A stretch of 64,000 nt of DNA from an uncultured Solirubrobacterales bacterium (GTDB taxonomy: Bacteria > Actinomycetota > Thermoleophilia > Solirubrobacterales > Solirubrobacteraceae), in contig CAWJYE010000008.1 of the NCBI GenBank assembly GCA_963847055.1, forward strand, positions 298,947 through 362,946. The letters are read 5' to 3'. Of this stretch, positions 61-14,011 are shown one piece after another. The notes under the pieces are model-generated. The model did not search any database. It had not been told where the DNA came from and worked only from the letters and a program-made list of their open reading frames with translations. Each line of letters starts with the position of its first letter. Position 1 is the stretch's first letter. Made by a program: the position numbers and the translations under genes.

Positions 61-1203
61 GTGACCGAGGAGTCGACTCCAGACCTGCAACGCACCGCGT
101 TCGATACCGCGCAGCGAGACGCGGGTGCGACCTGGACCGACTGGGAGGGCTGGGCTTGGGCGGCCGATTTCGGCGATCCCGTGGCTGAGCACAACGCGAC
201 GCGGACGGCGTGCAGCCTGTGGGACGAGTCACCGCTTCGGAAGTGGGATCTGCGCGGACGCGACGCCGTCGCGCTGACCGACGCCCTGTTCACCAACGAC
301 ATGGCCGGGCTCGAGGTGGGCCAGGTCCGCTACGGCGCGCTGTGCGACGAGCAGGGCAAGATGATCATGGACGGCACCGTCTTCCGACTCGCCGACGACC
401 ACTGCATGTCGATCACCAGCTACGACTCAGACCTGGCCTGGTTTGAGCAGGTCGCCTCTGACCGGGGGCTCGAGGTGCAGATCGAGGATCACACGCCGCA
501 GATGCCCCACCTGCAGATCCAGGGCCCCAACGCCCGCAAGGTGCTCGGGCCGATCACCGAGGGCGTCGACGTCGACGCGCTGCGCTATTTCCGCTTCGTC
601 CACGAGGGCGTGCGCGTGGGCGGCGTCCCGGCCTGGGTGTCACGCACGGGGTATTCGGGCGAGCTCGGCTTCGAGGTCTACTGCTCCGTCGATGACGCGC
701 CCGAACTGTGGGATGCCGTGGTGCGCGCGGGCCAGCCTCACGGCCTGCGCCCGATCGGCCTGTCGGCGATCGAGATCCTGCGGATCGAGTCCGGCCTGCT
801 GTTCCCCGACATCGACTACTTCCCCCGTCAGACCGACCCTTACGAGGTCCGGCTTGACAACGTCATCAAGCTCGACAAGGCGGGCGACTTCGTGGGTCGC
901 GACGCACTGCGAGCGATCGCGGCTCAGGGCACTCCGCGGCTGCTGACGACCTTGCGGATCGAGGGGGACCAGCTGCCCGAGTACGGCGCTGCCGTCACCA
1001 GCGACGGTCGCGAGGTGGGGGTCGTCCGGAGTCCGTGCCAGAGCCCGACCTTTGATATGCAGGTGATCGGGATGACAACGCTGGAGCGCGACCTGGTGCA
1101 CGACGGCCAGCGGGTCGAGGTGACGGTTGGCGACGGTGTGGTCGGCGCCACGGTGGCGCCATTTCCCATCTACGACACGCAGAAGCGGCGTCCGCGCAGC
1201 TAA
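61..1203 (+). CDS. Aminomethyltransferase (GcvT/T-protein) family, THF-dependent demethylase-like
   Basis: 380 aa ORF with T-protein motifs (GQVRYGALCDEQGKMIMDG, QIQGPNAR, SRTGYSGELGFEVY, LRIESGL, PFPIYD). No gcvH/gcvP in window. Confidence 0.85.
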   Translation: MTEESTPDLQRTAFDTAQRDAGATWTDWEGWAWAADFGDPVAEHNATRTACSLWDESPLRKWDLRGRDAVALTDALFTNDMAGLEVGQVRYGALCDEQGKMIMDGTVFRLADDHCMSITSYDSDLAWFEQVASDRGLEVQIEDHTPQMPHLQIQGPNARKVLGPITEGVDVDALRYFRFVHEGVRVGGVPAWVSRTGYSGELGFEVYCSVDDAPELWDAVVRAGQPHGLRPIGLSAIEILRIESGLLFPDIDYFPRQTDPYEVRLDNVIKLDKAGDFVGRDALRAIAAQGTPRLLTTLRIEGDQLPEYGAAVTSDGREVGVVRSPCQSPTFDMQVIGMTTLERDLVHDGQRVEVTVGDGVVGATVAPFPIYDTQKRRPRS

Positions 1204-1976
1204 GCGTCCGCGACGTGGTCATGCGCCCGGGCCTGGTAGGCCTCGGCGGCGGCCACAAACCACTCGAACACGGCCGCGAAGCGAGCGTCGATCCGGCACT
1301 CCTCCTGCAGCTCCCATTGCACCCCGAGGACCGGGCTGCCGTCTAGCTCGATCGCCTCGACCACGCCATCCGGCGCCGTGGCCGTCGCGCGCAGCCCCGC
1401 GCCCAGCTCGTCCAACGCCTGGTGATGGAAGGAGTTGACGCTCGCGGCCGCGCCGCCGAGCGCGGCCCCGAGGATGCTCGATTCCTCCACGGCGATCGGG
1501 TGACGCGGATGGGGCGGGATCCGAGCGCCGTCCAAGGCCGCGCTCTCCATCCCCTTCCAGGCTTTCCAGCCCGGGTCTGAGGGGTGCTCGCGCGAGCGCG
1601 CGAGCAGGCGTACGTCCTGGTGCAGCGTCCCGCCGCGAGCCACGTTGAGGACCTGCATCCCGCGACAGACGCCGAGCACCGGCAATCCGCGATCCAGGGC
1701 GGCGGCCACGAGCGCAAACTCGAACTCGTCTCGGCGAGGCTCGGTCGCGGCCAGCAGCGGGCCGGGCGCCTGGCCGTAGCGGCCCGGGTCGATGTCGCGT
1801 CCGGGCGCGAGCACCACCCCGGCCAGGGGCTCGAGCGTGCCCGGCAGCGCCTCGGGGAGCTGGGCCAGCGTGACCGGCAGCCCACCGGCGGCGAGCAGCG
1901 GCCGCTGGATGCCCACCCCTCCGTAGTCGCCGAAGTCGTGCAGGCTCGCCGAGACGCCGATCAGGGCTCGCGCCAT
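1200..1976 (-). CDS. Gamma-glutamyl-amide hydrolase family (peptidase C26, PuuD-like class I glutamine amidotransferase)
   Basis: GRDIDP, EPRRDEFE, LGVCRGMQ (nucleophile Cys), VNSFHHQ, GVQWELQE. ATG at 1976 overlaps the upstream stop (TGATG). The usual HPE triad motif reads ELQE here. Confidence 0.8.
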   Translation of the reverse strand: MARALIGVSASLHDFGDYGGVGIQRPLLAAGGLPVTLAQLPEALPGTLEPLAGVVLAPGRDIDPGRYGQAPGPLLAATEPRRDEFEFALVAAALDRGLPVLGVCRGMQVLNVARGGTLHQDVRLLARSREHPSDPGWKAWKGMESAALDGARIPPHPRHPIAVEESSILGAALGGAAASVNSFHHQALDELGAGLRATATAPDGVVEAIELDGSPVLGVQWELQEECRIDARFAAVFEWFVAAAEAYQARAHDHVADA

Positions 1977-4129
1977 CAGGCGCCAACCTGCTCGGTGCTC
2001 GGCACCAGCGCTTCCTCGATCAATTCGGTCAGCTCGCGCAGCTCGATTCGCTCGGCGTTGCCCGAGGTCTTGATCGCGTCCTCGTACATGGTCACGTCCT
2101 TCGGGCACGAGACCACGAACAGCTCGACCTCGGGAAGGTCGACCGCCTCGCGGATGCGGTTCTCTGAGGGCCGCTCCTGACCGGGCTGATCGGTGATCCA
2201 GATTCGTCCGCCGCCCGCGCCGCAGCAGAACGAGTTGTCGCGGTTGCGCGGCATCTCGACCAGCCCGCAGCCCAGTAGTTCGAGAATCCTTCGCGGAGCT
2301 TCGTACTCACCCTGAAACCGGCCCAGATGGCACGGGTCGTGATAGGTCACCCGATAGGAGAGGCGGTCGCGCACCTGCAGACGACCGGCCTCGATCAGCT
2401 CGAGCAGCAGCGCCGTGTGGTGGCTAACCCTCCAGCTGCCGCCGAGCTCGGGATACTCGTTTCGCAACGTGTTGAGCGAATGGGGATCGCTGGTGACGAT
2501 CCGCTGAAACTCGCAGTCGTCGATCGTGGCGATGTTCTGCTCGGCCAGGGACTCGAACAGACCCTCCTCGCCGACCCTCCTCACGTCATTGCCCGAGTTG
2601 CGCTCGCCGTCGTAGAGGATCCCGAAGTCGACCCCGGCGGCGTGCAGAAGCCGCGCCAGCGAACGGGTCACCTGTTGGGAGCGCGGATCGAACGATGCGT
2701 AGTCCCCCACGAACCACAGCACATCGACCGGGTGCTTGCGGGCATCGGGGACATCGAAGTGCAGCTCCCGAGTCCAGCGACCGCGCTTGCGCCGGTTCTC
2801 GCCGAACGAGTTACCGGACTTGTGGATCACCTCGAGGGTCGACTGCAGGTTTGAATCGAGCTCGCCCTCCTCGACCAATCGCCGGCGCAGCTGGTTGATG
2901 ATTGGCGCCTGCTCGATCCCCACCGGACAGATCTCGACGCAGGCGTTGCACTGCATGCACGACCACAACGTCTCGGTCCTCACGCCGTCGGCTCCGATCA
3001 CGCCGGCGGTGAAGCCTCCACCGTCGGCGTCTCCGTCGAGCAGGGAACCGAGCAGGCCGCCGATGCCCGCGCCGGCCGCGGCGTGGTTGGACTGCTCGCG
3101 CAGCTCCAGGATCACGTCCCGGGGCGAGAGCGGGCGCCCGGTCGCGTTGGCCGGACACGCCTCATGGCACTTGCCGCACTTGGTGCAGGCATCGAGCTGG
3201 AGCAGGTGCAGGGGGCTGAAGTCGGCCAGAGCGCCGTAGCCGGCCGGCTCGTCGGCGCGCCCGGGAGCGATCGGGCGCAACCGCTTGCCCGCCATCGGAT
3301 CACGCAGCGCCAGCGAGAAGAAGCTGGTCAGCATGTGCGCGGCCTTGGTGTAGGGGATGCTGGCCACGAAGGAGATCGCCAGCAGCCCGTGAAACCACCA
3401 CAGCCCGTGACGGAGCCCCGCCAGCGTGCCACGGCCCAGCCCGCCCAGCGCCTGGGCCACGACCCAACCCCCGAACTGGGTAGCGCCGTAGCCGGGATGG
3501 TCCATCGCGATCCGCACCCCCTCGAGCACGAAGCCGGTCAGCGCGATCACCAGCAGCGCAATCACAAACCACCAGTCCCCGATCCTGTACACCCGGCGGT
3601 CGTACTGGGGATCGTCGCGGGCACGGTCGGGTCGCGAGTAGTCAAGCTTGGCGGGACGACCGATCGCGCGGCGGGCCATCATCACCAGCACGCCCGCGAC
3701 CAGGGCCGTGCCGAGGAGGTTGAGCACTTCCTTGTAGACGAGATAAAAGCCGCCCCGGAAGTAGTCCCAGCCGAACACCGGTGAGGTGAAGTCGGTATCG
3801 AAACCGAGGATCACCGTCCCGGCAAACAGCGTCAGAAAGCCGTAGAAGATGCCGCGGTGCGCCCAGCCGGCGGTCCGGTCACGACGCTCGATCGTCGCGT
3901 GGGAAAACAGCAACCGCGCACCCGTGGCCAGCCGCGGTGGCAGCTCGCGCCAGGGACACGGCGGCCAGGCGCCGCCCTGGCCGCGCCGGTACTTGACGAT
4001 CGGCCGCAGCACTCCGTAGACGAACACCGCCACCGAGGCCACCGCCAGCAGGTACCAGAGAACCTTGAGGACGGTGGCGAAGTGCCAGAAGACCGGGCGT
4101 GTCTCGGTGGCCGCGAGCAGGAGCGCCAT
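1976..4129 (-). CDS. Membrane Fe-S oxidoreductase, FadF/EtfD-like (NarI-like TM domain, 2x[4Fe-4S], CCG domains); probable ETF:quinone oxidoreductase
   Basis: N-terminal TM helices with His residues, CTKCGKCHEACP and CMQCNACVEICP, HDPCHLGR, CCGAGGG. Start reset to ATG 4129 (MALLLAATETRPVFW). Directly downstream of etfBA. Confidence 0.8.
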   Translation of the reverse strand: MALLLAATETRPVFWHFATVLKVLWYLLAVASVAVFVYGVLRPIVKYRRGQGGAWPPCPWRELPPRLATGARLLFSHATIERRDRTAGWAHRGIFYGFLTLFAGTVILGFDTDFTSPVFGWDYFRGGFYLVYKEVLNLLGTALVAGVLVMMARRAIGRPAKLDYSRPDRARDDPQYDRRVYRIGDWWFVIALLVIALTGFVLEGVRIAMDHPGYGATQFGGWVVAQALGGLGRGTLAGLRHGLWWFHGLLAISFVASIPYTKAAHMLTSFFSLALRDPMAGKRLRPIAPGRADEPAGYGALADFSPLHLLQLDACTKCGKCHEACPANATGRPLSPRDVILELREQSNHAAAGAGIGGLLGSLLDGDADGGGFTAGVIGADGVRTETLWSCMQCNACVEICPVGIEQAPIINQLRRRLVEEGELDSNLQSTLEVIHKSGNSFGENRRKRGRWTRELHFDVPDARKHPVDVLWFVGDYASFDPRSQQVTRSLARLLHAAGVDFGILYDGERNSGNDVRRVGEEGLFESLAEQNIATIDDCEFQRIVTSDPHSLNTLRNEYPELGGSWRVSHHTALLLELIEAGRLQVRDRLSYRVTYHDPCHLGRFQGEYEAPRRILELLGCGLVEMPRNRDNSFCCGAGGGRIWITDQPGQERPSENRIREAVDLPEVELFVVSCPKDVTMYEDAIKTSGNAERIELRELTELIEEALVPSTEQVGA

Positions 4130-4142
4130 GGCGGCTAGCGGC

Positions 4143-5105
4143 TCACGGGTCCAGCAGCCCCTCGAGCTCGTCGGCGATCTCGAACAGGTCCGCCACCGCT
4201 CCGTAATGCGCGACGCCGAAGATCGGCGCTTCCGGGTCGGTATTGACGGCGATGATCGTCTCCGCCGTGCGCATGCCCGCCAGGTGCTGGACGGCGCCGG
4301 AGATCCCGAGCGCCAGGTACACGCGCGGCTTGACCGTCTTCCCCGACTGACCAACCTGGCGCGCGCTCGGCATCCAACCGGCGTCCACGAGCGGACGCGA
4401 CACGCTGAGGGTCGCGCCCAGGCGCTCGGCCAGGGCCTCAAAGCGCGGAAGCTCGTCCTTGTCCTGGACGCCACGGCCGATCGAGACCAAGAACGGCGCC
4501 TTGGTGATGTCGACATCGCCCTCCTGCACCTCCTCAAAGCCCAGGTGCTCGGTGGCGGCCACCCCGTCGAGGGCCAGCTCCACCGTCCGGCTGGGTGGCG
4601 ATCCCCCGCCCGCGGCGGCCGGCTCGAAGGTCCCGGGACGAAGCAGCAGCAGCGTGCACGGCTTGCCCGGGAAGTCGAGCTCGAGGACGAGCTTGTCGCC
4701 GTAAGCGCCGCGCCCGGCGATGGGGCCGTCGTCGAAGGACAGCGAAGTGACGTCTGAGGCAAAACCCAGCCCTCGCCTGGCCGCCACGGCCGGCGCGCAA
4801 CCGAGCGCGTCGATCGTGTGACCGAGCAGCACCAGTCCGGGGCGCTCGGTCTCGATCAGCTCCTCCAGCGCCCGCTGGGCGACGTGGGCTTCGAAGTGCT
4901 CTTGGGGGGTCGCAACAAGCAGCAGCTCGTCCACCCCGTCGGCGGCCAGCGCCGCGGCGAAGCGCTCGGGCTGATGATCGATCACTGCCACCACCAGGCG
5001 GCCCCCGCACGACGGCTTGATCTGACGGGCGGCGCTGACGAGCTCCAGCGAGACGTCGCGCAGCTCTCCACGGCGGGTTTCGGCGACTACGAGCACGTCG
5101 CTCAT
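4143..5105 (-). CDS. etfA: Electron transfer flavoprotein alpha subunit
   Basis: VSIGRGV, SRPLVDAGW, QVGQSGKTVKP, ALGISGAVQHLAGM, AVNTDPEAPIF. Confidence 0.95.
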   Translation of the reverse strand: MSDVLVVAETRRGELRDVSLELVSAARQIKPSCGGRLVVAVIDHQPERFAAALAADGVDELLLVATPQEHFEAHVAQRALEELIETERPGLVLLGHTIDALGCAPAVAARRGLGFASDVTSLSFDDGPIAGRGAYGDKLVLELDFPGKPCTLLLLRPGTFEPAAAGGGSPPSRTVELALDGVAATEHLGFEEVQEGDVDITKAPFLVSIGRGVQDKDELPRFEALAERLGATLSVSRPLVDAGWMPSARQVGQSGKTVKPRVYLALGISGAVQHLAGMRTAETIIAVNTDPEAPIFGVAHYGAVADLFEIADELEGLLDP

Positions 5106-5905
5106 CCGGCTGCGCTCATCCGGTCGCGGACGATCTCGACGATCCGGCTGGCGAGCTGGTCAGGCGAACCGTCGAGCATCTCGGCGCCGCCTCCCCGCTC
5201 GGGCATTCTCAGCTCACGGCGCCGCGAGGCGGCCGCAGCGGCGAGCGCTCCCGCGTCGAGATCGAGCTGCTCGGGCGTGGTGACCTCGAGTGGCTTCTCA
5301 CGCGCCCGCTTGATCGCCCGCAGGTTGGCGTACCGAGGCTCGTTGATCCCGGTCTGGATCGTGAGCAGCGCCGGGGTGCGCACGCGCAGCACCTCTACCA
5401 GTCCGCCCTCGAGCTCGCGCTTGACAGTGGCGGTGGAGGCAGCGGCCGCGTACTCAAGATGCTTGACCACGGCCACGTGGGGCAGCTCGAGGTAGCCGGC
5501 CAGAGCCACGCCGGTAGCCCCGTTGACGGCATCCGAGGACTGCACGCCGCACAGCACGAGGTCGGGTGCCTCGCGCGCGACCGTGGCGGACAGAACACGC
5601 GCCACCGCGAGCGGATCGAGATCCCGGCAGTCATCGCTCCACACCCGGATGGCTCGGTCAGCGCCCATCGCCAGGCAGCCGAGCAGCGCCTCCTCGGACG
5701 GCTGGTCGCCGACGGTGATGACCACCACTTCGGAGTCGTCGCCCTCGGCCTGTTCGCGCAGGGCCAAAGCCGCCTCGAGCGAGAACGAGTCCCACTCGTT
5801 GAGCTCGGTTTGCACGAAGTCAGGGTCGACCCCCGAGCCGTCCTCGAGCAGCTCGAAGTCGTCGTCGAGCGCGGCGACCTGCTTGACCGGGACGACGACC
5901 TTCAC
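5102..5905 (-). CDS. etfB: Electron transfer flavoprotein beta subunit
   Basis: VPVKQV, LNEWDSFSLE, MGADRA, CGVQSSD, RELEGG, GINEPRY. Resembles the Methylophilus TMADH-partner ETF as I remember it. Confidence 0.95.
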   Translation of the reverse strand: MKVVVPVKQVAALDDDFELLEDGSGVDPDFVQTELNEWDSFSLEAALALREQAEGDDSEVVVITVGDQPSEEALLGCLAMGADRAIRVWSDDCRDLDPLAVARVLSATVAREAPDLVLCGVQSSDAVNGATGVALAGYLELPHVAVVKHLEYAAAASTATVKRELEGGLVEVLRVRTPALLTIQTGINEPRYANLRAIKRAREKPLEVTTPEQLDLDAGALAAAAASRRRELRMPERGGGAEMLDGSPDQLASRIVEIVRDRMSAAG

Positions 5906-5941: not shown

Positions 5942-8134
5942 TTAGGCGACATCTACCGTGTTGAGCAGCTGAGCGCGGTAGTCGTCGTTGCTGCTCTCGC
6001 CCCACAGGCGCCGCTCGCGGATGAACGGAAGCGGCATCTCCGGATGCGGCGAGTCAATTTCCCTCGCCAGGCGATGGCCGTCGAAGACCGAGTCGACGAT
6101 CATCCGCGGCGCCGAAGCGTCGCCGATCACGTACAGCGCCTCGATCCCCTCCTGGGCCAGCCGCGCCGGGTCTGACTTGAGCTCGCGGTACAGCTCGTCG
6201 TCGGAGATTCGGGCCGTGCACAGCACCACGGTGTCGACCTCGAAGACCTCCTTGTGGGCCGGATTCCAGACGTTGTAGGCATGGCAGGCGCCCGGCTCGA
6301 TCCGCTCGAGCATCGTGTACGGGTGGATGCCGACGTTGAGCCGATGCAGATCGCGGTGCAGCATGGGAGCCTCGAGCGTGTACTCCATGTAGCCCGCGAT
6401 GTCCCCGGCCTGGGTGAGGAGCTGAACTTCGTGGCCCTCGCCGGCCAGCTTCTGGGCGACCGAGGCGCCCATGAAGTACCCCTCGTTCTCAAGCACGAGC
6501 ACGCGCTTACCGATCGTCTTGTTCCCAGAGACCACCTGATCGGGGGTCAGCTGCCAGTCCAGCGCCGCGTCGGCGCCCGGGATGGGCTCGTGCGTGGCCG
6601 CGTTGAGGCCGTCGGTGGCGTAATGACAGCCGGTCGCGACGATCACGATCTCAGCCCCGTAGTCGAGCACCTGCTCGGCGCTCAGGCGCGAGCCCGTATG
6701 CACCTCGACGTTTGACAGCTTGTCGAGCTGGATCTGGCGGTAGTTGACGATCCGGCTCCACTCGCCCAGGCCCCGGGCGGTACCGCGGAACAGGTTCTCC
6801 TTGCCGTCGGAATGCCCGAGCTTGGAGATCCAGTTCACGCTGCCGCCGATCTCCTTGGCCCCCTCGACCAGGTGCACGGCCGACATTTCGCGCTTGCCCA
6901 GCACCATCGCGCACTCCATCCCCGCCGGGCCGGCGCCGATCACCAGCACGCCCTTGTCACGGTTGGCGGCCGGGTGGAACTTCTCAGGATGCCAGCCGCG
7001 GCGGTACTCCTCGCCCGCGGTCGCGTTCTGGGTGCAGACCATGGGCGGGCCGCCGATCTCCCAGCGCGAAATGCACTGGTTGCAGCCGATGCACTCACGG
7101 ATGTCCTCGAGCCGGCCCTCGTCGATCTTCTGGGGCAGGAACGGATCGGAGATCGAGGGTCGCGCGGCGCCGATGATGTCGTACTGGCCCGAGTTGATGA
7201 TCGCGATCATGGTGTCGGGGTTCGTGATCCGCCCGACGCCGACGACCGCCTTGTCGGTGTGGTTGCCGGCCTTGACCTGGCCCGTGAACGGCTTCTCGTG
7301 GTTTTCCTCAAAGAAGCGTGAGGGACCGGCATTCTGGCCCCACTCTGCGATATCGCCGACCGTGAAGTCCCACAGGTCGACGAGATCATTGCAGTGCTCC
7401 ACGAACCGGATCCCATCCTCGCCCACCTGAATCGACGACGGTCCCAGCAGGTGGTCGACGGCGAACCGCGATGCGATCGCGCAGTCATCTCCGACCGCCT
7501 CGCGGACCTTGTACAGCGACTCGCGCCAGAAGCGGGCGCGGTTCTCAAACGAGCCGCCGTACTCGTCGGTGCGGCGGTTGTAGAACGGCGAGAGGAACTG
7601 AAACGGCAGGTAGGCGTGGGCGCCGTAGACGTAGATGATGTCGAAGCCGGCGTCGCGAGCACGGAGCGCCGCGTCGACGTACATCTGCTGGACGGTCGCG
7701 ATGTCGTCCTTGTCCATGTGGCGCGGGAAGATGTTGAGCTCGAAGTCCGAGGCGATCTGCGAAGGGCCGCGCGGCGTGGCCCGCGTTTCCATGCACGGGG
7801 CGTGGGGACCGCCGTACCACAGCTCGATGCCCGCCAGGGCACCAAACTCATGCAGGCGGTCGCACATCGCGGCCAGGTTGCGGACATCGCCTTCATCCCA
7901 GATCCGAGCCGAGACACGGGATGTGTCATCGGATTCGGGATGAATCGAGCAGTATTCGGTGCAGCACGCGCCCCAGCCGCCTTCGGCCTTCATGCCGCGG
8001 TGATAGGCCTGCATCCCCGGCTTCTCTGACCCGGCGCCGATGCAGTGAGGGACCTGGTAGAAGCGATTCTTCAGGGTCTTCGGTCCGATCTGGATCGGCT
8101 CGAAGAGGATGTCGTACTTCGGGTCGCGCGGCAC
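5942..8134 (-). CDS. tmd: Trimethylamine dehydrogenase (6-S-cysteinyl-FMN/[4Fe-4S] flavoprotein)
   Basis: N-terminus PRDPKYDILFEPIQIGPKTLKNRFYQVPHCIGAG is nearly identical to remembered Methylophilus TMADH. VPHC covalent-FMN Cys, VYGAHAY, AEWG, CIGCNQCISRWEIGGPPMVCTQNATAGEEYRRGWHPE are all present. Confidence 0.9.
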   Translation of the reverse strand: MPRDPKYDILFEPIQIGPKTLKNRFYQVPHCIGAGSEKPGMQAYHRGMKAEGGWGACCTEYCSIHPESDDTSRVSARIWDEGDVRNLAAMCDRLHEFGALAGIELWYGGPHAPCMETRATPRGPSQIASDFELNIFPRHMDKDDIATVQQMYVDAALRARDAGFDIIYVYGAHAYLPFQFLSPFYNRRTDEYGGSFENRARFWRESLYKVREAVGDDCAIASRFAVDHLLGPSSIQVGEDGIRFVEHCNDLVDLWDFTVGDIAEWGQNAGPSRFFEENHEKPFTGQVKAGNHTDKAVVGVGRITNPDTMIAIINSGQYDIIGAARPSISDPFLPQKIDEGRLEDIRECIGCNQCISRWEIGGPPMVCTQNATAGEEYRRGWHPEKFHPAANRDKGVLVIGAGPAGMECAMVLGKREMSAVHLVEGAKEIGGSVNWISKLGHSDGKENLFRGTARGLGEWSRIVNYRQIQLDKLSNVEVHTGSRLSAEQVLDYGAEIVIVATGCHYATDGLNAATHEPIPGADAALDWQLTPDQVVSGNKTIGKRVLVLENEGYFMGASVAQKLAGEGHEVQLLTQAGDIAGYMEYTLEAPMLHRDLHRLNVGIHPYTMLERIEPGACHAYNVWNPAHKEVFEVDTVVLCTARISDDELYRELKSDPARLAQEGIEALYVIGDASAPRMIVDSVFDGHRLAREIDSPHPEMPLPFIRERRLWGESSNDDYRAQLLNTVDVA

Positions 8135-8187: not shown

Positions 8188-8673
8188 CTACCGGATCCGG
8201 TCGGCGCTGTCCACCGCTTCGGCCCTGTCGGGGGGGACCCTATCCGGCTCGAGCTCCCAGGTCGGCAGGTCGGCCAGCGCCTGGCGGTAGCGGCGTTTGT
8301 AGACCGGACGCAAGAACATCGACCAGGTCGTCGCGCCCAAGGCGACCACGACGAGACCGCCGAAGGCGCGCCCGGCGATGATGAACGCGACCACGCACAC
8401 GAGCGCCACAAGGCTGATCGCGATCGGCACCCGCCGGAAGCGCAGCTGCGTCCGGCGAATCTCGGCGTATTGCTCGATCGGAATCCGCGCCGTGTTCCAG
8501 ATCCGCCCACATTGCTCGCACGCCCAGCGCTCGCCGTAGTGAAGGTATCGGCGCTCACCGCACTCACAGGTGATCGTGATCGGAGGCCCGCGCCGAACCG
8601 ACCTGGGAACCGCCACCGGGTCGTCGTCCCTGGCGAGGGAGCCCAGAGCGCCGTCGGGGCTGCCGGCGCGCAT
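8188..8673 (-). CDS. Hypothetical protein: zinc-ribbon-like CxC...CxxC followed by two TM helices
   Basis: TCECGERR...WACEQCGRIW, then two hydrophobic segments. ATG at 8673 overlaps the upstream TAA (TAATG). Confidence 0.7.
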   Translation of the reverse strand: MRAGSPDGALGSLARDDDPVAVPRSVRRGPPITITCECGERRYLHYGERWACEQCGRIWNTARIPIEQYAEIRRTQLRFRRVPIAISLVALVCVVAFIIAGRAFGGLVVVALGATTWSMFLRPVYKRRYRQALADLPTWELEPDRVPPDRAEAVDSADRIR

Positions 8674-9119
8674 TAGTGCGCCGGGGGCTCCCAGCCCTCG
8701 AGCACGCTGCGCTGATAATCGGTCCCCACGGTCCGTGAGTCTTGCACCCACGGCCCGAGCTCGGGCTGCGGGAACTTGCAGTGCTGCTCTTTCAACGCGA
8801 TCCCGTAGGAGTTGCCCGACTGCAGGTGGCAGATCAAGACCTTGCGGGCGATCTCGTCCTCGCGCCCCGCCGGGATCGCGAAGTAGATCTTGATGAACGC
8901 GTTTGAGTAGCGGTCAAACACCGCCGGCACCCCGTCCTCGCTCAGCAGAACCACGTCCTCGAGCCAGTTGAGGTCGGCCCCCGGGGTAGCCGCGTTGAGG
9001 TCGATGTCCGACACCAGGCCCAGGTCTTCCTGGTAGGGAAAGCGCTTGCCCGACAGATATTCGGCGTCGATCGAGAACACCTTCTCGGGCTCAGAGAGAA
9101 CACGTCTCACCTCAGTCAT
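8673..9119 (-). CDS. Hypothetical soluble protein (148 aa), translationally coupled to mgsC
   Basis: Non-repetitive, globular-looking composition. ATG overlaps the mgsC stop (ATGACTGA). No motif recognised. Confidence 0.75.
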   Translation of the reverse strand: MTEVRRVLSEPEKVFSIDAEYLSGKRFPYQEDLGLVSDIDLNAATPGADLNWLEDVVLLSEDGVPAVFDRYSNAFIKIYFAIPAGREDEIARKVLICHLQSGNSYGIALKEQHCKFPQPELGPWVQDSRTVGTDYQRSVLEGWEPPAH

Positions 9120-10580: not shown

Positions 10581-11402
10581 CTAGAGGACGAGCTTGCGCT
10601 CGGAGGGTTCGAGCGAGTCGTAGTTGTAGAGCTTCTTGCCGCACACGAACTTGGTGAAATGGGGCGGGGAGCCGAGCTCGTAAATGGAGAACTTGCGCTC
10701 GATCAGCTCGGTGTCGGCGTCCGTCCACTCCCCTTCGACGCAGTCGACGCCCAGTGACTTGACCTGGCCGGCGACGTAGATCTCGCCGTCGTACATCGAG
10801 TCGCCCAGCCCCGGTCCCACGTCGCCACACAGGATCTGGCGTCCGCGCTGCATCATGAAACCGGTCATCGAGCCGGCATCGCCGAGGGCGATGATCGTCC
10901 CGCCCTTCTGATCGATTCCGGTTCGGGCCCCGACCCGGCCCTTGATCACGAGGTCGCCACCGCGGATCGCGGCCCCGGTGAGCGAGCCGGCGTTGGAGTC
11001 GATCACCACGACCCCCGACATCATGTTTTCGCACGCCGACCACCCGACGCGGCCGGCGATGTGGACCTCAGGCCCGTCGATCATCCCGAGGGCAAAGTAG
11101 CCCAGGCTTCCTTCGAAGTTCAGCCGGCAGCGTGTGAGCAGGCCGGCGCCCAGCGAATGGCGGGCCCCTGGATTGCTGACCGTCACCTCGCGCACGCCCT
11201 GCTCATAGAGGAGCCAGCGCAGCTCGAGGTTGATCTGCCTGGTGGTGAGCTCGCGGGCGTCGAAGGTTGCCGAGGCGCCGTCGATCTGCGCCACGCGCGG
11301 AACGCGGGCGTCGAGCTCGACCAGCCCGCGGGCATCGAAGCGGGGCTCCTCGGGTGACGGGTACGAGTTCGGGGACGGGGTCCCCGTGGTCACCGGGTCC
11401 AT
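10581..11402 (-). CDS. mgsB: N-methylglutamate synthase subunit B (GXGXG/FwdC-like domain, GlxC-like)
   Basis: Repeated GxGxG beta-helix motifs (GRVGWSACENMMSG, GRVGARTGIDQKGG, GFMMQRG, GDSMYDGEIYV). Lies between mgsA and mgsC. Confidence 0.88.
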   Translation of the reverse strand: MDPVTTGTPSPNSYPSPEEPRFDARGLVELDARVPRVAQIDGASATFDARELTTRQINLELRWLLYEQGVREVTVSNPGARHSLGAGLLTRCRLNFEGSLGYFALGMIDGPEVHIAGRVGWSACENMMSGVVVIDSNAGSLTGAAIRGGDLVIKGRVGARTGIDQKGGTIIALGDAGSMTGFMMQRGRQILCGDVGPGLGDSMYDGEIYVAGQVKSLGVDCVEGEWTDADTELIERKFSIYELGSPPHFTKFVCGKKLYNYDSLEPSERKLVL

Positions 11403-12370
11403 ACCATCACCGTGCTCTCATAGGGGTCATAGGTCTCGATCTCGCGATCGATCACGGCTCGAATCGCCATCTCCTCGGAGGCCAGCGCGACCATGTCGTC
11501 GCCCTCGTAGAGAACCAGCGGCTTGGCGGCGAGCTCGTCCTTGGCCACGCCCAGCGCGTCCTGCGAGACACAGATGTAGGTGAAGACCCCGTCCAGGTCC
11601 TCGAGGCTGTGATGCATCGCGTCCTCCAGCGATTCTCCCGCGGCCATCCGGTCGGCCAGGTAGACGGCGATGATCTCCGAATCGCACATCGATGCGAAGC
11701 GGTGGCCGCGGGCCTCCAGACGCCGGCGCCACTGGTGGTAATTGGTCAGCTGGCCGTTGTGGACGACGGCGACGTCGGAGAACGGGTACGCCCAGTAGGG
11801 ATGCGCGTTGGCGATGTCAACATCCGATTCAGTGGCCATGCGCACATGGCCGATGCCGTGCGAGCCGAGGTAACCGTCGAGCTGGTAGGCGCTCGAGACC
11901 GTCCGCGCGTCCCCGAGATCCTTGACGATCTCGAGCGAGTGACCGAGTGACAGCACCTCGGTGTGCGGGACTGACTCGACGTGGTCAGCGAGCGTCTTGA
12001 GGTCACCCGCGTAGGCGACGGTGGCCGTGAAGGTGTAGTCGTTGGCGTCCTCGGTGCGCATGATCTCCGCTCCCGCCGCCCTCAGTCGCGCCTGCACCTC
12101 GTGGCGCCGGCGCCGGACGTCACCGGCGAAGTCCAGATCGCGGGCTGCGGTCGACTCGGCCAGGTTGATACGTACGGTCAGCTCCTCGCTGGGAGCGTGG
12201 TAGAGCGCGAACCCGGTCGAGTCCGGTCCGCGATGCTTCATCGACTGCAACATGCTGGTCATGTCACGGCCGATCCGGTGGGGTGTCTGAGCTGGCTCCG
12301 GCCGGTGGGACGGATGGGAACCAATTTCACCACTGCCGTTGCGGTAGATGATCCCGGCGATTCCGCACAT
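11390..12370 (-). CDS. mgsA: N-methylglutamate synthase subunit A (class II glutamine amidotransferase, GlxB-like)
   Basis: N-terminal MCGIAG, HRGPDSTG, GHVRMATES, AHPYW, VHNGQLTN, CDSE, DGVFTY. AGGAG RBS. Confidence 0.88.
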   Translation of the reverse strand: MCGIAGIIYRNGSGEIGSHPSHRPEPAQTPHRIGRDMTSMLQSMKHRGPDSTGFALYHAPSEELTVRINLAESTAARDLDFAGDVRRRRHEVQARLRAAGAEIMRTEDANDYTFTATVAYAGDLKTLADHVESVPHTEVLSLGHSLEIVKDLGDARTVSSAYQLDGYLGSHGIGHVRMATESDVDIANAHPYWAYPFSDVAVVHNGQLTNYHQWRRRLEARGHRFASMCDSEIIAVYLADRMAAGESLEDAMHHSLEDLDGVFTYICVSQDALGVAKDELAAKPLVLYEGDDMVALASEEMAIRAVIDREIETYDPYESTVMVWTR

Positions 12371-12400: not shown

Positions 12401-13858
12401 TTAGGGCAGCACCTCGAGGTACTCGTCGCGTTCCCAGTCGGTCACGGCGGCGAGGTAGCGCTCCCATTCATCCCGCTTGTAATGGTTGAAGACCTTGTAG
12501 AGGCGACCCGGCATCGCGCTGCGGATGACCTCGTCGGCAGCCAGCGCCTCGAGCGCCGCGCCCAGGCTGTCGGGCACCTTTTCGATCTTCGCCCCCTGCT
12601 GGAGCAGGTCATAGGTGTTGCCCTGCTGTGGCGGCCCGGGATCAAGCTCACGGCGGACGCCGTCCAGACCGGCCCGGAGGAGCGTCGCCACGGTCAGATA
12701 CGGATTGCAGGACGAGTCGACGCCGCGATACTCAAATCGGCCGCCCGAGGCTACGCGCACCGTGGTGGTGCGGTTCTGCCAGCCCCAATTCTTGTAGATC
12801 GGAGCCCAGAAGCCGGTGTCCCACATCCGGCAGTAGGAGTTCACGGTCGGGTTGCCGACGCACATCAGGGCGGGGAAGTGCTCGAGCATGCCGCCGAGGA
12901 AGTGGCGCGCGAACTGAGACAGCTGGGCCGGACCCTCGGGATCGTGAAAGACGTTGTGTCCGTCCTCGTCCATGAGCGTGAAATGGTGATGGTGCCCATT
13001 GGCCGATACGCCGGTGAACGGCTTGGGCATGAACGAGGCCAGCAGGTCGTGCTTGCGAGCCACCGCCGCGCACACCTGGCGGTAGGTGGTGATGTTGTCG
13101 GCCGTGCGGAGCGGACGATCGAAGCGGAAGTTGAGCTCGAGCTGACCGGGGGCGTCCTCGTGGTCGCCGTAGCTCATGTCGAGGCCGAGCGCCTGTCCGT
13201 ATTGCACCACGTCGAGGAGCACGGGGCGAAGCTCCTCGAACTGGTGGATGTGGTAGCAGTAGGGCTTGGTCACGCCCTGCGGGATCTCGCCTGCCTCGGG
13301 TCGCTTGAGCCACATCATCTCGGGCTCGATCCCGATCAGGAACTGGCATCCGAGCTCCTGCTCGAAGTCGTGGGCGACCGCCTTGAGGTTCTGGCGCGGG
13401 TCGGCGTCCAGCAGCTCGCCGGTCTCGGTGTCGTAGCAGTCGCAATAGACGCGCGCGACCCGGCTGTCCCACGGCAGCACCGCGAAGGTGTCCAGGTCGG
13501 CGACCGCGGCCAGCTCTGATTCCTCGGGGCCGAAGCCGATGTAGTTGCCGTAGCGGTCGGTGAACAGGTTCGCGGTCGCGCCGTAGACGAGCTGGTAGCC
13601 CTTCTCCGCCACCTGTGCAAAGAAGGTCGACACAACGCCCTTGCCCATCACGCGCCCGGTGATCGAAACCTGCTGAAAGAAGACGTAGCGGATGCCCTCG
13701 GCCTCGATTCGCCGAGTCAGCTCCTCGATCTTGGCCGCTCGCCCCGGGGCGTTGCGGGCTTGCTCGAGCGTCGCGGGGGCCGGCTCAATCCGCGGCGAGG
13801 CGAGCACCGTCTGGACGTCGCCTCCGAACACAACCTCGTCTTGCCCAGCTGTCTGCAT
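12401..13858 (-). CDS. gmaS: Gamma-glutamylmethylamide synthetase (glutamine-synthetase-like amine ligase)
   Basis: GIEPEM, HEDAPGQLE, MPKPF..NGHHHH, NRTTTVR, RFEYRGVDSSCNPY. The flap motif is GFWAP (Trp instead of the Glu of GYEAP), typical of amine ligases. First gene of the mgsABC operon, with a GAGGAG RBS. Confidence 0.78.
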   Translation of the reverse strand: MQTAGQDEVVFGGDVQTVLASPRIEPAPATLEQARNAPGRAAKIEELTRRIEAEGIRYVFFQQVSITGRVMGKGVVSTFFAQVAEKGYQLVYGATANLFTDRYGNYIGFGPEESELAAVADLDTFAVLPWDSRVARVYCDCYDTETGELLDADPRQNLKAVAHDFEQELGCQFLIGIEPEMMWLKRPEAGEIPQGVTKPYCYHIHQFEELRPVLLDVVQYGQALGLDMSYGDHEDAPGQLELNFRFDRPLRTADNITTYRQVCAAVARKHDLLASFMPKPFTGVSANGHHHHFTLMDEDGHNVFHDPEGPAQLSQFARHFLGGMLEHFPALMCVGNPTVNSYCRMWDTGFWAPIYKNWGWQNRTTTVRVASGGRFEYRGVDSSCNPYLTVATLLRAGLDGVRRELDPGPPQQGNTYDLLQQGAKIEKVPDSLGAALEALAADEVIRSAMPGRLYKVFNHYKRDEWERYLAAVTDWERDEYLEVLP

Positions 13859-13880
13859 CCCCACTCCTCGCCTCGCACGC

Positions 13881-14011
13881 TTGACTGGACAAATTGGTAC
13901 ACGTGGCGTTATACCAAGCGCTCGTCGCGACCGCAAGCGGCGAGCTTGACCCCAGGCAGGGGACGGGCTACGCTATTGCGCTGTCCCCAATTCCGTTGCA
14001 CTATAGGCAAC
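13881..14011. promoter_or_regulatory. Divergent gmaS/mgdA control region with inverted repeats
   Basis: TTGGTA-N12-TACCAA (13894-13917), imperfect palindrome TGGACAAATTGGTACA (13886-13901), GTTGC-ACTATAG-GCAAC (13995-14011). Confidence 0.5.

Follow-up and report, generated by a model that had tools for sequence, protein, structure and literature searches.

What can a C26-family protein do once it has kept its nucleophilic cysteine and lost its catalytic histidine, and why should its gene lie among genes for methylated-amine breakdown? The window analyzed here, a stretch of 64,000 nucleotides from an uncultured Solirubrobacterales bacterium, raises this question through a class-I GATase-like gene of family C26 at positions 1200..1976 on the minus strand (product P0001). 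The chemistry of C26 and class-I amidotransferase enzymes is textbook Cys-His-Glu, and the His is normally essential in both. E. coli PuuD (6vtv) and P. aeruginosa SpuA (7d4r), both C26 members, are gamma-glutamyl-GABA or gamma-glutamyl-polyamine hydrolases.

The reading frame gives a stop-free translation of 258 aa, and its codon usage fits a real gene (GC1/2/3 of 0.80/0.51/0.90; genome GC 69%). P0001 matches Pfam family PF07722 (Peptidase_C26) with an E-value of 1.5e-49 and 169 bits against a cut-off of 20.5, residues 27-221 aligning on profile positions 33-216 of 219. Its AF2 model (pLDDT 93.9, pTM 0.93) has its best Foldseek matches in 3fij, SpuA (7d53 and 7d50) and PuuD (6vtv), with E-values of about 1e-21 and TM scores of 0.75-0.88 for 3fij, 7d53 and 6vtv; the modelled fold is the alpha/beta fold of class-I glutamine amidotransferases. 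Against the PuuD equivalog NF008471 (NCBIfam) the protein scores 93.1 bits, well short of the cut-off of 266. The match to PF00117 (class-I glutamine amidotransferase) is weak but above its cut-off (32.4 vs 22.8 bits). We considered and rejected assignment as a class-I glutamine amidotransferase subunit, since the triad is incomplete and no conserved partner synthase gene lies nearby. No match to the DJ-1/PfpI family was present among the Pfam hits at E <= 0.01, and an ESM Atlas look-up returned generic C26 clusters only.

To place the active-site motif, we made pairwise HMMER alignments of P0001 with SpuA (7d4r), Lin1909 (3fij) and E. coli PuuD (6vtv). Cys104 of GVCRGMQ (codon 1665..1667, minus strand) aligns with the SpuA/PuuD nucleophile and is invariant in 41 clade and 99 canonical sequences. 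The segment LGVQW-E222-L223-Q224 lies opposite LGVQW-H-P-E with no indel, and the motif Q220-W-E222-L-Q224-E-E (1299..1319, minus strand) replaces canonical Q-W-H-P-E by changes of His to Glu, Pro to Leu and Glu to Gln. The triad His position is thus Glu222 in P0001 and His in 99/99 canonical representatives; the triad Glu position, two residues further on, is Gln224 in P0001 and Glu in 99/99. The preliminary description had recognized a PuuD-like C26 protein with its Cys kept and its His lost, and the QWELQE motif on which it relied is genuine, but it missed this second swap, by which the triad Glu has become Gln.

A lost His could also be an artefact or the private mutation of one genome. 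Neither an error in sequencing nor a frameshift accounts for the motif: HPE is absent from both shifted frames of the DNA at this site, and 120/120 near homologues carry the motif too. Specifically, Q[WCF]ELQEE occurs in all 120 of the closest homologues (65-97% identity), and the looser pattern E[LI][QH] persists in the same 120 and in representatives down to ~41% identity. A private mutation is rejected as well, given that the swap recurs in homologues and defines a whole branch: the ELQ-type proteins form one side of a single branch among HPE-type C26 proteins, with an SH-aLRT of 99. Judged from these sequences, the ELQ-type clade is of single origin, within Solirubrobacterales and Gaiellales-type Actinomycetota.

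The remodeling extends beyond the triad. The first Gly of canonical G-G-x-D, present in 99/99 canonical sequences, is Pro in 88% of the clade (Pro58 in P0001, codon 1803..1805, minus strand), and canonical Tyr23 is lost in favor of Val or Ile. Alignment also reveals two clade-specific segments. One is an 18-residue insertion (residues 136-153, G-W-x-x-W-K...E...L; 1518..1571, minus strand), which is a gap in 97-100% of canonical sequences and helical in the AF2 model (helix 138-149); the other is an N-terminal motif, S-x-S-x-H-D-F-G-D-Y-G-G-x-G-x-Q-R-P (residues 9-26; 1899..1952, minus strand). P0001 therefore resembles PuuD and SpuA in Pfam family, class-I GATase fold, G-x-C-R-G nucleophile elbow and the motifs N-S-x-H-H-Q, R-D-x-x-E, D-G-x-x-E-A-x-E and Q-W, and differs from them in reading E-L-Q for H-P-E and P-G-R-D for G-G-x-D, in the insertion and in the new N-terminal motif. 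Conserved residues common to the clade and canonical C26 are Asp61, Arg82, Asp83, Glu86, Cys104, Arg105, Gly106, Gln108, Asn111, Gly115/116, Gln120, Asp121, His131, His159, Asn181, Ser182, His184, His185, Gln186, Asp203, Glu207, Glu210 and Gln220; the sole conserved-residue switches in the clade are Gly58 to Pro, Tyr23 to Val/Ile and H-P-E to E-L-Q.

With the remaining pocket retained, P0001 might still work much as PuuD does, as an ordinary gamma-glutamyl-amide hydrolase or glutaminase, with another part of the protein contributing the missing His. We rejected His131, His159, His184 and His185 as compensating residues, as they are equally conserved in canonical C26 and hence not new. Two conserved His residues are new to the clade, His13 (93% of members) and His156 (98%), and either could be the substitute. 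We nevertheless hold this explanation to be improbable: the source genome already encodes a canonical, HPE-type C26 paralogue, and the ligase adjacency typical of PuuD-like genes is lost in the clade (see below).

Two known cases bear on how a C26 protein might act without this His. In SpuA H221N, a glutamyl-thioester or bound Glu is present according to the PDB entry titles (7d50, 7d53), and the trapped thioester shows that the Cys of a C26 protein can be acylated even where the His is missing. P0001 is likewise a C26 protein without its catalytic His; however, H221N is an engineered single substitution, whereas the clade carries a natural, conserved triple substitution together with further remodeling. 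The second case is an analogy: in enzymes of the DJ-1, PfpI and Hsp31 type, which have the class-I GATase-like superfold, the nucleophile-elbow Cys is paired with a carboxylate instead of an imidazole. Unlike these proteins, P0001 falls outside their family by Pfam, and the DJ-1 carboxylate comes from a different position.

A natural, conserved clade in which the Cys is kept and His and Glu have become Glu and Gln points to a new use of the fold or to a hydrolase turned ligand-binder. With both triad partners gone and the invariant Gly of G-G-x-D replaced, P0001 might be a catalytically dead pseudo-enzyme whose C26 fold and pocket survive solely for binding, with glutamine or a gamma-glutamyl compound as the ligand. 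We regard this as unlikely, because Cys104 and the C-R-G elbow stay invariant down to ~41% identity and the replacement residues E-L-Q-E-E are themselves strongly conserved. Instead, we tentatively favor a functional remodeled enzyme over a decaying pseudogene. Sequence features, their conservation, the single branch, the fold and the gene contexts are observed, whereas the type of ligand, the ability to catalyze and the role in the cell are inferred. In such an enzyme, the Cys-His-Glu triad would be rebuilt as Cys-Glu-Gln with the nucleophile elbow kept, and the gamma-glutamyl pocket presumably lies among the retained conserved residues. A gamma-glutamyl amide or glutamine-like ligand would be bound and attacked by Cys104, with Glu222, oriented by Gln224, serving as acid/base in place of His. 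The combined loss of His and Glu, plus the Gly-to-Pro change in the G-G-x-D strand, also fits a non-catalytic binding protein.

The window places the gene in an island that encodes the NMG pathway (GmaS, MgsABC, MgdABCD) and a TMADH-ETF system. Twelve same-strand genes with gaps of at most 53 bp run from a GS-like (GmaS-type) gene (12401-13936, minus strand; Pfam, NCBIfam) at the head of the string through the C26 gene, so the operon from gamma-glutamyl ligase to C26 gene that had been described earlier is real in this window. Also on the minus strand are mgsA (11390-12370), mgsB (10581-11402) and mgsC (9112 to about 10590), all called by Pfam and NCBIfam; an orthologue of trimethylamine/dimethylamine dehydrogenase (5942..8134), which by phmmer against the PDB scores 910 bits (E 8e-273) to 1djn/2tmd vs 519 bits to histamine dehydrogenase; and etfB (5102-5905) with etfA (4143-5105), together 4143..5905 (Pfam ETF, ETF_alpha). 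A further minus-strand gene encodes an EtfD-like Fe-S/CCG-domain oxidoreductase (1976..4150, start approximate; Pfam CCG, Fer4_8), presumably the protein that re-oxidizes ETF, whose orthologues in related loci have 707-728 aa. Convergent to the C26 gene, and overlapping it by 4 nt at its 3' end, is a gene for a stand-alone GcvT-like aminomethyltransferase (61..1203, plus strand; Pfam GCV_T, GCV_T_C). Scanning for promoters and terminators gave nothing above chance level: the promoter-like site at 14028-14000 (minus strand) is one consensus match of the kind expected by chance.

The stop of the Fe-S gene and the start of the C26 gene overlap in a TGATG (1974..1978, minus strand), an arrangement that recurs in six other loci (L003, L049, L050, L055, L057 and L061). 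In Gaiellales-type loci, the C26 gene again directly adjoins a CCG Fe-S gene, here in divergent orientation. Both arrangements speak for the pseudo-enzyme, which could then be a sensor, a buffer or a structural accessory, for example of the translationally coupled Fe-S/ETF oxidoreductase, and so does the dispensability of the gene in many otherwise identical clusters. An accessory role to the Fe-S protein is, on the other hand, at odds with loci of the Tdm (TMAO demethylase) type, from which the Fe-S partner gene is absent.

Does the C26 gene then pair with the gamma-glutamyl ligase as PuuD does with PuuA, as the preliminary description proposed? We compared 25 species-level clade loci with 55 canonical C26 loci within a 10-kb radius; carrier and locus counts were drawn from samples and related genomes. 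Of the clade loci, 0/25 have a GS-like gene inside this radius, vs 18/55 of the canonical loci, and a PuuA/PuuD-type pairing is thus not a feature of the clade. Its members, unlike PuuD and SpuA, have no adjacent GS-like ligase and are embedded in TMA/TMAO/MMA catabolic islands. The proposed co-occurrence with gmaS holds at the level of genomes: a GmaS orthologue is present in 16/17 carrier genomes, in 14 of them on the same contig, 9-49 kb away. The ligase gene of the window stands 10.4 kb upstream of the C26 gene, in one gene string; in 13 other carriers the distance is 9-49 kb. Within the order sample, 6/7 carriers have a GmaS orthologue vs 52/301 genomes overall, and in 10/10 further carriers GmaS is on the same contig, 15-49 kb off. 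What did not stand is adjacency; in the reverse direction, just 6/52 GmaS-positive genomes of the order sample have the C26 gene, and most GmaS- and TMADH-positive genomes are without it. Moreover, six complete gmaS-mgsABC-TMADH clusters (L041-L046), otherwise identical, have no C26 gene. This makes it improbable that the gene generally supplies the NMG pathway with its GMA-processing enzyme: ligase adjacency is missing, carriage is 6/52 and six clusters do without the gene. That most GmaS-/TMADH-positive genomes have no clade gene, and that clade loci have no GS-like gene within 10 kb, counts against the remodeled gamma-glutamyl enzyme favored above. So do two considerations of metabolism, namely that GMA hydrolysis combined with GmaS would be a futile, ATP-consuming cycle and that it would duplicate the class-II amidotransferase subunit MgsA.

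We rejected the idea that the TMADH/ETF/Fe-S system, or GmaS/Mgs, requires the protein as a subunit, since L041-L046 are complete without the gene and TMADH is absent from seven clade loci. The clade gene is an optional accessory in methylated-amine islands. Its place in methylated-amine metabolism, also suggested earlier, is borne out by its neighbors: TMADH is nearby in 14/25 clade loci vs 0/55 canonical loci, an Fe-S gene in 13/25 vs 0/55, and a GcvT-domain gene within 10 kb in 23/25 vs 0/55, while 7/25 clade loci have the Tdm-type arrangement. Direct neighbors are accordingly either a TMADH-etfBA-FeS operon or a TMAO demethylase operon, almost always with a GcvT-domain gene. A domain search of two Tdm-type loci, L035 and L037, found an ACAD-like gene and a DUF1989-GcvT gene, and the one Tdm-type locus tested passed the NCBIfam equivalog cut-off for TMAO demethylase (1148 vs 1100 bits). 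Gaiellales-type members and those at 59% identity stand beside GlcD/GlcF-like and luciferase-like genes, which counts against the favored enzyme as well.

The constancy of the GcvT-domain neighbor invites two explanations centered on tetrahydrofolate. TMADH and Tdm both release formaldehyde, and formaldehyde or an N-hydroxymethyl amide arising from TMADH, Tdm or flavin demethylases would be the substrate of a Cys-Glu pair, like that of DJ-1/glyoxalase III-type enzymes, that passes the C1 unit to the neighboring THF-binding GcvT-like protein. The Cys-Glu arrangement follows from the alignments, and no canonical C26 locus has this neighbor; still, the chemistry is argued by analogy alone, P0001 has no DJ-1/PfpI family match, and the near-complete retention of canonical C26 residues argues for a gamma-glutamyl-type ligand, all of which leaves formaldehyde or carbinolamide chemistry quite doubtful. 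Alternatively, the protein, which is distantly related to gamma-glutamyl hydrolase (GGH), the type enzyme of C26, might bind the polyglutamate chain on the THF of the GcvT-domain enzymes next door, or shorten it; PF07722 also covers folate gamma-glutamyl hydrolases. This we consider highly improbable despite the constant adjacency to THF-dependent genes, for the nearest relatives are bacterial PuuD/SpuA-type amine-conjugate hydrolases and not GGH.

The reading to which we lean, with reservations, links P0001 to dimethylamine-producing steps, as a remodeled Cys-Glu enzyme that has not lost its binding of a gamma-glutamyl amide. It would be co-expressed with the conversion of TMA or TMAO to dimethylamine and formaldehyde (TMADH-ETF-FeS or Tdm operon), next to the adjoining THF-binding GcvT-like protein and with no dedicated GmaS partnership. 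Its likeliest job would be hydrolysis or amine exchange of a GmaS-made gamma-glutamyl alkylamide (GMA, or the dimethylamide by-product), returning glutamate. The strict position of the gene beside TMA- and TMAO-demethylating modules suggests that methylated-amine turnover in uncultured soil Actinomycetota includes an accessory step not yet described. The island encodes the NMG pathway and a TMADH-ETF system like that of Methylophilus, and a C26 or GATase-I component of TMA/DMA/MMA pathways was not found in the open-access literature on them; a SAR11 paper has only an unrelated 'putative glutamine amidotransferase' adjoining fhs. P0001 is small, confidently modeled and directly testable in vitro.

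Finally, no route for handling dimethylamine is evident among the carrier-genome genes seen here, and we see a slim chance that the clade either supplies this unexplained step or guards the cell against it. Loss of the water-activating His might have turned a gamma-glutamyl hydrolase into an amine exchanger or a dedicated tertiary-amide hydrolase. The exchanger would convert Gln or GMA plus dimethylamine to gamma-glutamyl-dimethylamide; the hydrolase would clear gamma-glutamyl-dimethylamide, a dead-end by-product that GmaS would make under a surge of dimethylamine from TMADH or Tdm. Such a function would explain why the gene travels with two dimethylamine-producing modules, why it needs a GmaS-positive genome and why it is optional.

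The gene under study is an uninterrupted open reading frame of 258 codons on the minus strand (1200-1976, from translation), whose codon-position GC content (0.80/0.51/0.90) matches that of real genes in a genome of 69% GC. Its product, P0001, belongs to Pfam Peptidase_C26 (PF07722; E 1.5e-49), with a weaker match to class-I GATase; its best NCBIfam model, the PuuD equivalog, scored 93 bits, below the cut-off of 266. When PDB sequences were searched with phmmer, P0001 aligned to SpuA of P. aeruginosa (7d4r; H221N mutants 7d50 and 7d53), Lin1909 (3fij) and E. coli PuuD (6vtv). An AlphaFold2 model built with the alignment of its clade (see below) as input was confident (pLDDT 93.9), and its top Foldseek matches were Lin1909, SpuA and PuuD.

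In the phmmer alignments, GVC104RGMQ of P0001 falls on the nucleophile motif and LGVQW-E222-L-Q224 falls, without a gap, on LGVQW-H-P-E. Glu (E222) thus stands in place of the catalytic His and, in addition, Gln (Q224) in place of the triad Glu. The preliminary description had proposed a retained Cys nucleophile and a lost His, and the alignment to the three PDB proteins agrees with it. The model places E222 where the His loop usually sits, after strand 216-219 and before helix 223-229. HPE does not appear when the local DNA is read in either shifted frame, which rejects a frameshift as the source of ELQ.

The 120 best matches to P0001 in a collection of 5.8 billion proteins come from Solirubrobacteraceae and Conexibacteraceae MAGs at 65-97% identity, and every one has Q[WCF]ELQEE together with the G-x-C-R-G elbow. 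An exhaustive search among 50%-identity representatives gave 100 full-length matches with HPE and ~8 clusters with E-[LI]-[QH], the latter down to ~41-50% identity to P0001. A maximum-likelihood analysis (IQ-TREE quick, LG+G4) of 17 variant and 51 canonical sequences, 68 in all, kept the three motif columns (3 of 259) and put all variants on one side of a single branch (SH-aLRT 99). A private mutation, which the preliminary description had considered along with sequencing error, is therefore ruled out, and neither explanation holds for a motif conserved throughout one clade. The genome of the window also has one canonical HPE paralogue, on a different contig. The most divergent clade member (E-I-Q) is flanked by an aldehyde dehydrogenase gene and a canonical HPE C26 gene, a setting that hints at birth of the clade by duplication within a Puu-like cluster. 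At locus L048 (3-2953, a metagenome contig), aldehyde dehydrogenase, E-I-Q-type C26 and canonical HPE C26 genes run in tandem, their starts coupled; the contig may capture the founding duplication itself, or else encode a heteromeric pair.

A column-by-column comparison of 41 clade members with 99 canonical sequences found essentially all canonically conserved residues retained: D61, Y67, G68, R82, D83, E86, P99, C104, R105, G106, Q108, N111, G115, G116, Q120, D121, H131, H159, N181, S182, H184, H185, Q186, D203, G204, E207, E210 and Q220. Only a few positions have switched, and sharply: in the motif, H222 has become E, P223 L and E224 Q; the invariant first Gly of G-G-x-D has become Pro; and canonical Tyr23 is now Val or Ile. 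The clade has gained an N-terminal motif (S-x-H-D-F-G-D-Y-G-G), an 18-residue insertion (136-153) that folds as a helix in the model, and conserved histidines at two new positions, H13 and H156; even so, a PuuD-like hydrolase with its His relocated seems unlikely to us. Because the Cys and the rest of the site are kept, the replacement residues are invariant and the His/Glu to Glu/Gln change is charge-balanced, the active site looks rebuilt rather than decaying. A non-catalytic binding or accessory protein, that is, a ligand-binding pseudo-enzyme that has lost the His and triad Glu yet kept the Cys, is a possible but doubtful alternative.

In the window, twelve minus-strand genes are strung together with at most 53 bp between neighbours, from a GS-like (GmaS-type) gene through mgsA, mgsB, mgsC, two small ORFs, a trimethylamine dehydrogenase (TMADH)-type gene, etfB, etfA and an Fe-S/CCG oxidoreductase gene (720 aa) to the C26 gene, so an operon opened by a gamma-glutamyl ligase and closed by C26 was a fair account of this stretch. 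The dehydrogenase scores 910 bits to Methylophilus TMADH versus 519 to histamine dehydrogenase. The Fe-S stop codon and the C26 ATG share TGATG, and a convergent GcvT-like gene overlaps C26 by 4 nt. Beyond these, the island encodes a DAO-type flavoprotein, regulators of the IclR and GntR types, FTCD_C, formate-THF ligase and an enzyme of four subunits of the Sox/Mgd type.

Across 185,579 species genomes, 25 clade loci (55-74% identity) and 55 other C26 loci came up in a scan, and neighbours within 10 kb were scored by tblastn of the window proteins. The clade hosts are exclusively Solirubrobacterales, Conexibacteraceae, Gaiellales or unclassified Actinomycetes MAGs. A GcvT-domain gene lies near 23 of the 25 clade loci, TMADH near 14 and the Fe-S gene near 13, versus none of the 55 others in each case. 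The GS-like gene shows the reverse (0/25 versus 18/55, typically ~1.4 kb upstream of the other C26 genes), which removes, for the clade, the PuuA/PuuD-style pairing with GmaS that had been suggested. Canonical HPE-type C26 genes also lie within 10 kb of GS-like genes (31-38% to the window ligase) at L084, L091, L101 and L115 in Clostridia/Firmicutes MAGs, with glutamate-synthase-domain genes (30-36% to MgsC) in the same range at all but L084; this GS/GOGAT-like/C26 grouping is from another phylum.

Three arrangements recur. In arrangement A (13 clade loci), TMADH-etfB-etfA-FeS-C26 faces a GcvT-like gene; the Fe-S gene immediately precedes C26 in 11 of the 13, several with the TGATG coupling. 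One carrier, the unpublished genome G257 (locus L040), is an arrangement A duplicate, and the conclusions are independent of it. In arrangement B, without TMADH, C26 is divergent from an operon of an acyl-CoA-dehydrogenase (ACAD)-like flavoprotein and a DUF1989-GcvT protein; the one scored against NCBIfam passes the TMAO-demethylase (Tdm) equivalog cut-off (1148 versus 1100 bits). Solirubrobacterales examples are L035 10892-14191 (G287) and L037 10626-14240 (G143); L036, L051, L052, L054, L056, L059, L066 and L067 also hold the operon. To our knowledge, the ACAD-like partner lies outside the described tmm/tdm/dmm system; it might be an amine-oxidising flavoenzyme. In arrangement C, the divergent neighbours of C26 encode GlcF-like Fe-S, GlcD-like flavoprotein and luciferase-like proteins; it occurs in Gaiellales-type genomes (with a GcvT-like gene, IclR and a DAO flavoprotein nearby) and in a 59%-identity Solirubrobacterales subclade. 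This set (GlcF-like Fe-S/CCG, GlcD-like FAD oxidase, luciferase-like monooxygenase) occupies L039 5641-9647, L070 5876-10017 (with an amino-acid permease) and L038 1736-2911, and may be another amine-oxidising system. For one deep clade member, C26 and a DAO gene are translationally coupled.

Clade carriers are confined, nearly without exception, to genomes with GmaS: 6 of 7 carriers among 301 genomes sampled from the order (the seventh genome is 84% complete) and 10 of 10 further carriers, whose GmaS gene shares a contig with C26 at a distance of 15-49 kb. In three same-genus genomes the two genes are 9-18 kb apart. Conversely, only 6 of 52 GmaS-positive genomes in the sample carry the clade gene, as do 3 of 12 TMADH-positive genomes, adjoining TMADH in 2 of the 3; the genomes are related, so these counts serve as description and not as a test. 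C26 is missing altogether from six clusters whose layout is otherwise the same (gmaS-mgsABC-TMADH-etfBA-FeS and GcvT). There is a link at the genome level, but a loose and one-way one: co-occurrence with gmaS stands, adjacency does not. These C26-less clusters (L041-L046; G170, G054, G010, G180, G138, G135) belong to two further families of the order and share gmaS-mgsABC-orf148-(DAO)-orf8188-TMADH-etfBA-FeS facing the GcvT-like gene at 62-91% protein identity, several with a DAO flavoprotein between orf148 and orf8188.

Members of the clade are optional accessories to methylated-amine islands, tied most tightly to the TMADH and Tdm modules and the THF-binding GcvT-domain protein. The earlier methylated-amine link and altered chemistry survive; the GmaS partner in the PuuA/PuuD sense does not. 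TMADH and Tdm are alternative modules that make dimethylamine and formaldehyde. Formaldehyde or carbinolamide chemistry, by analogy with DJ-1-type Cys-Glu enzymes, would nevertheless be improbable for P0001, and a role in folylpolyglutamate beside the GcvT-domain protein very improbable. We favour, with modest confidence, a working Cys104/Glu222(/Gln224) enzyme still able to recognise a gamma-glutamyl amide. Plain hydrolysis of gamma-glutamylmethylamide is unattractive: set against GmaS it would be a futile reaction, and MgsA would make it redundant. The PDB titles of the SpuA H221N entries indicate that the family Cys can be acylated without the His, and loss of the water-activating base would be a plausible route from hydrolase to amine exchange. 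We found no mention of a C26 component of the TMA, DMA or MMA pathways in the open-access literature searched. The clade is of moderate interest as a familiar family in altered form, and its chemistry is a biochemical question open to direct testing.

The small ORFs between mgsC and TMADH, orf8188 (8188-8673, minus strand) and orf148 (8673-9119, minus strand), match no Pfam family. Since homologues are conserved in the same position at many related loci, they are likely real, undescribed parts of the island; orf8188 occurs at 11 of the 25 clade loci and orf148 at 4, and both at L041-L046. At L050 (10732-10765), L049 and L057, the C26 ORF extends ~30 nt into the convergent GcvT-like gene and gains a conserved C-terminal tail, Q-L-R-G-R-R-L-S-V-S, which simply reads the conserved GcvT-like C-terminus (D-T-x-K-R-R-P-R-S) in antisense. 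P0001, whose gene overlaps its neighbour by only 4 nt (1200-1203), lacks this tail.
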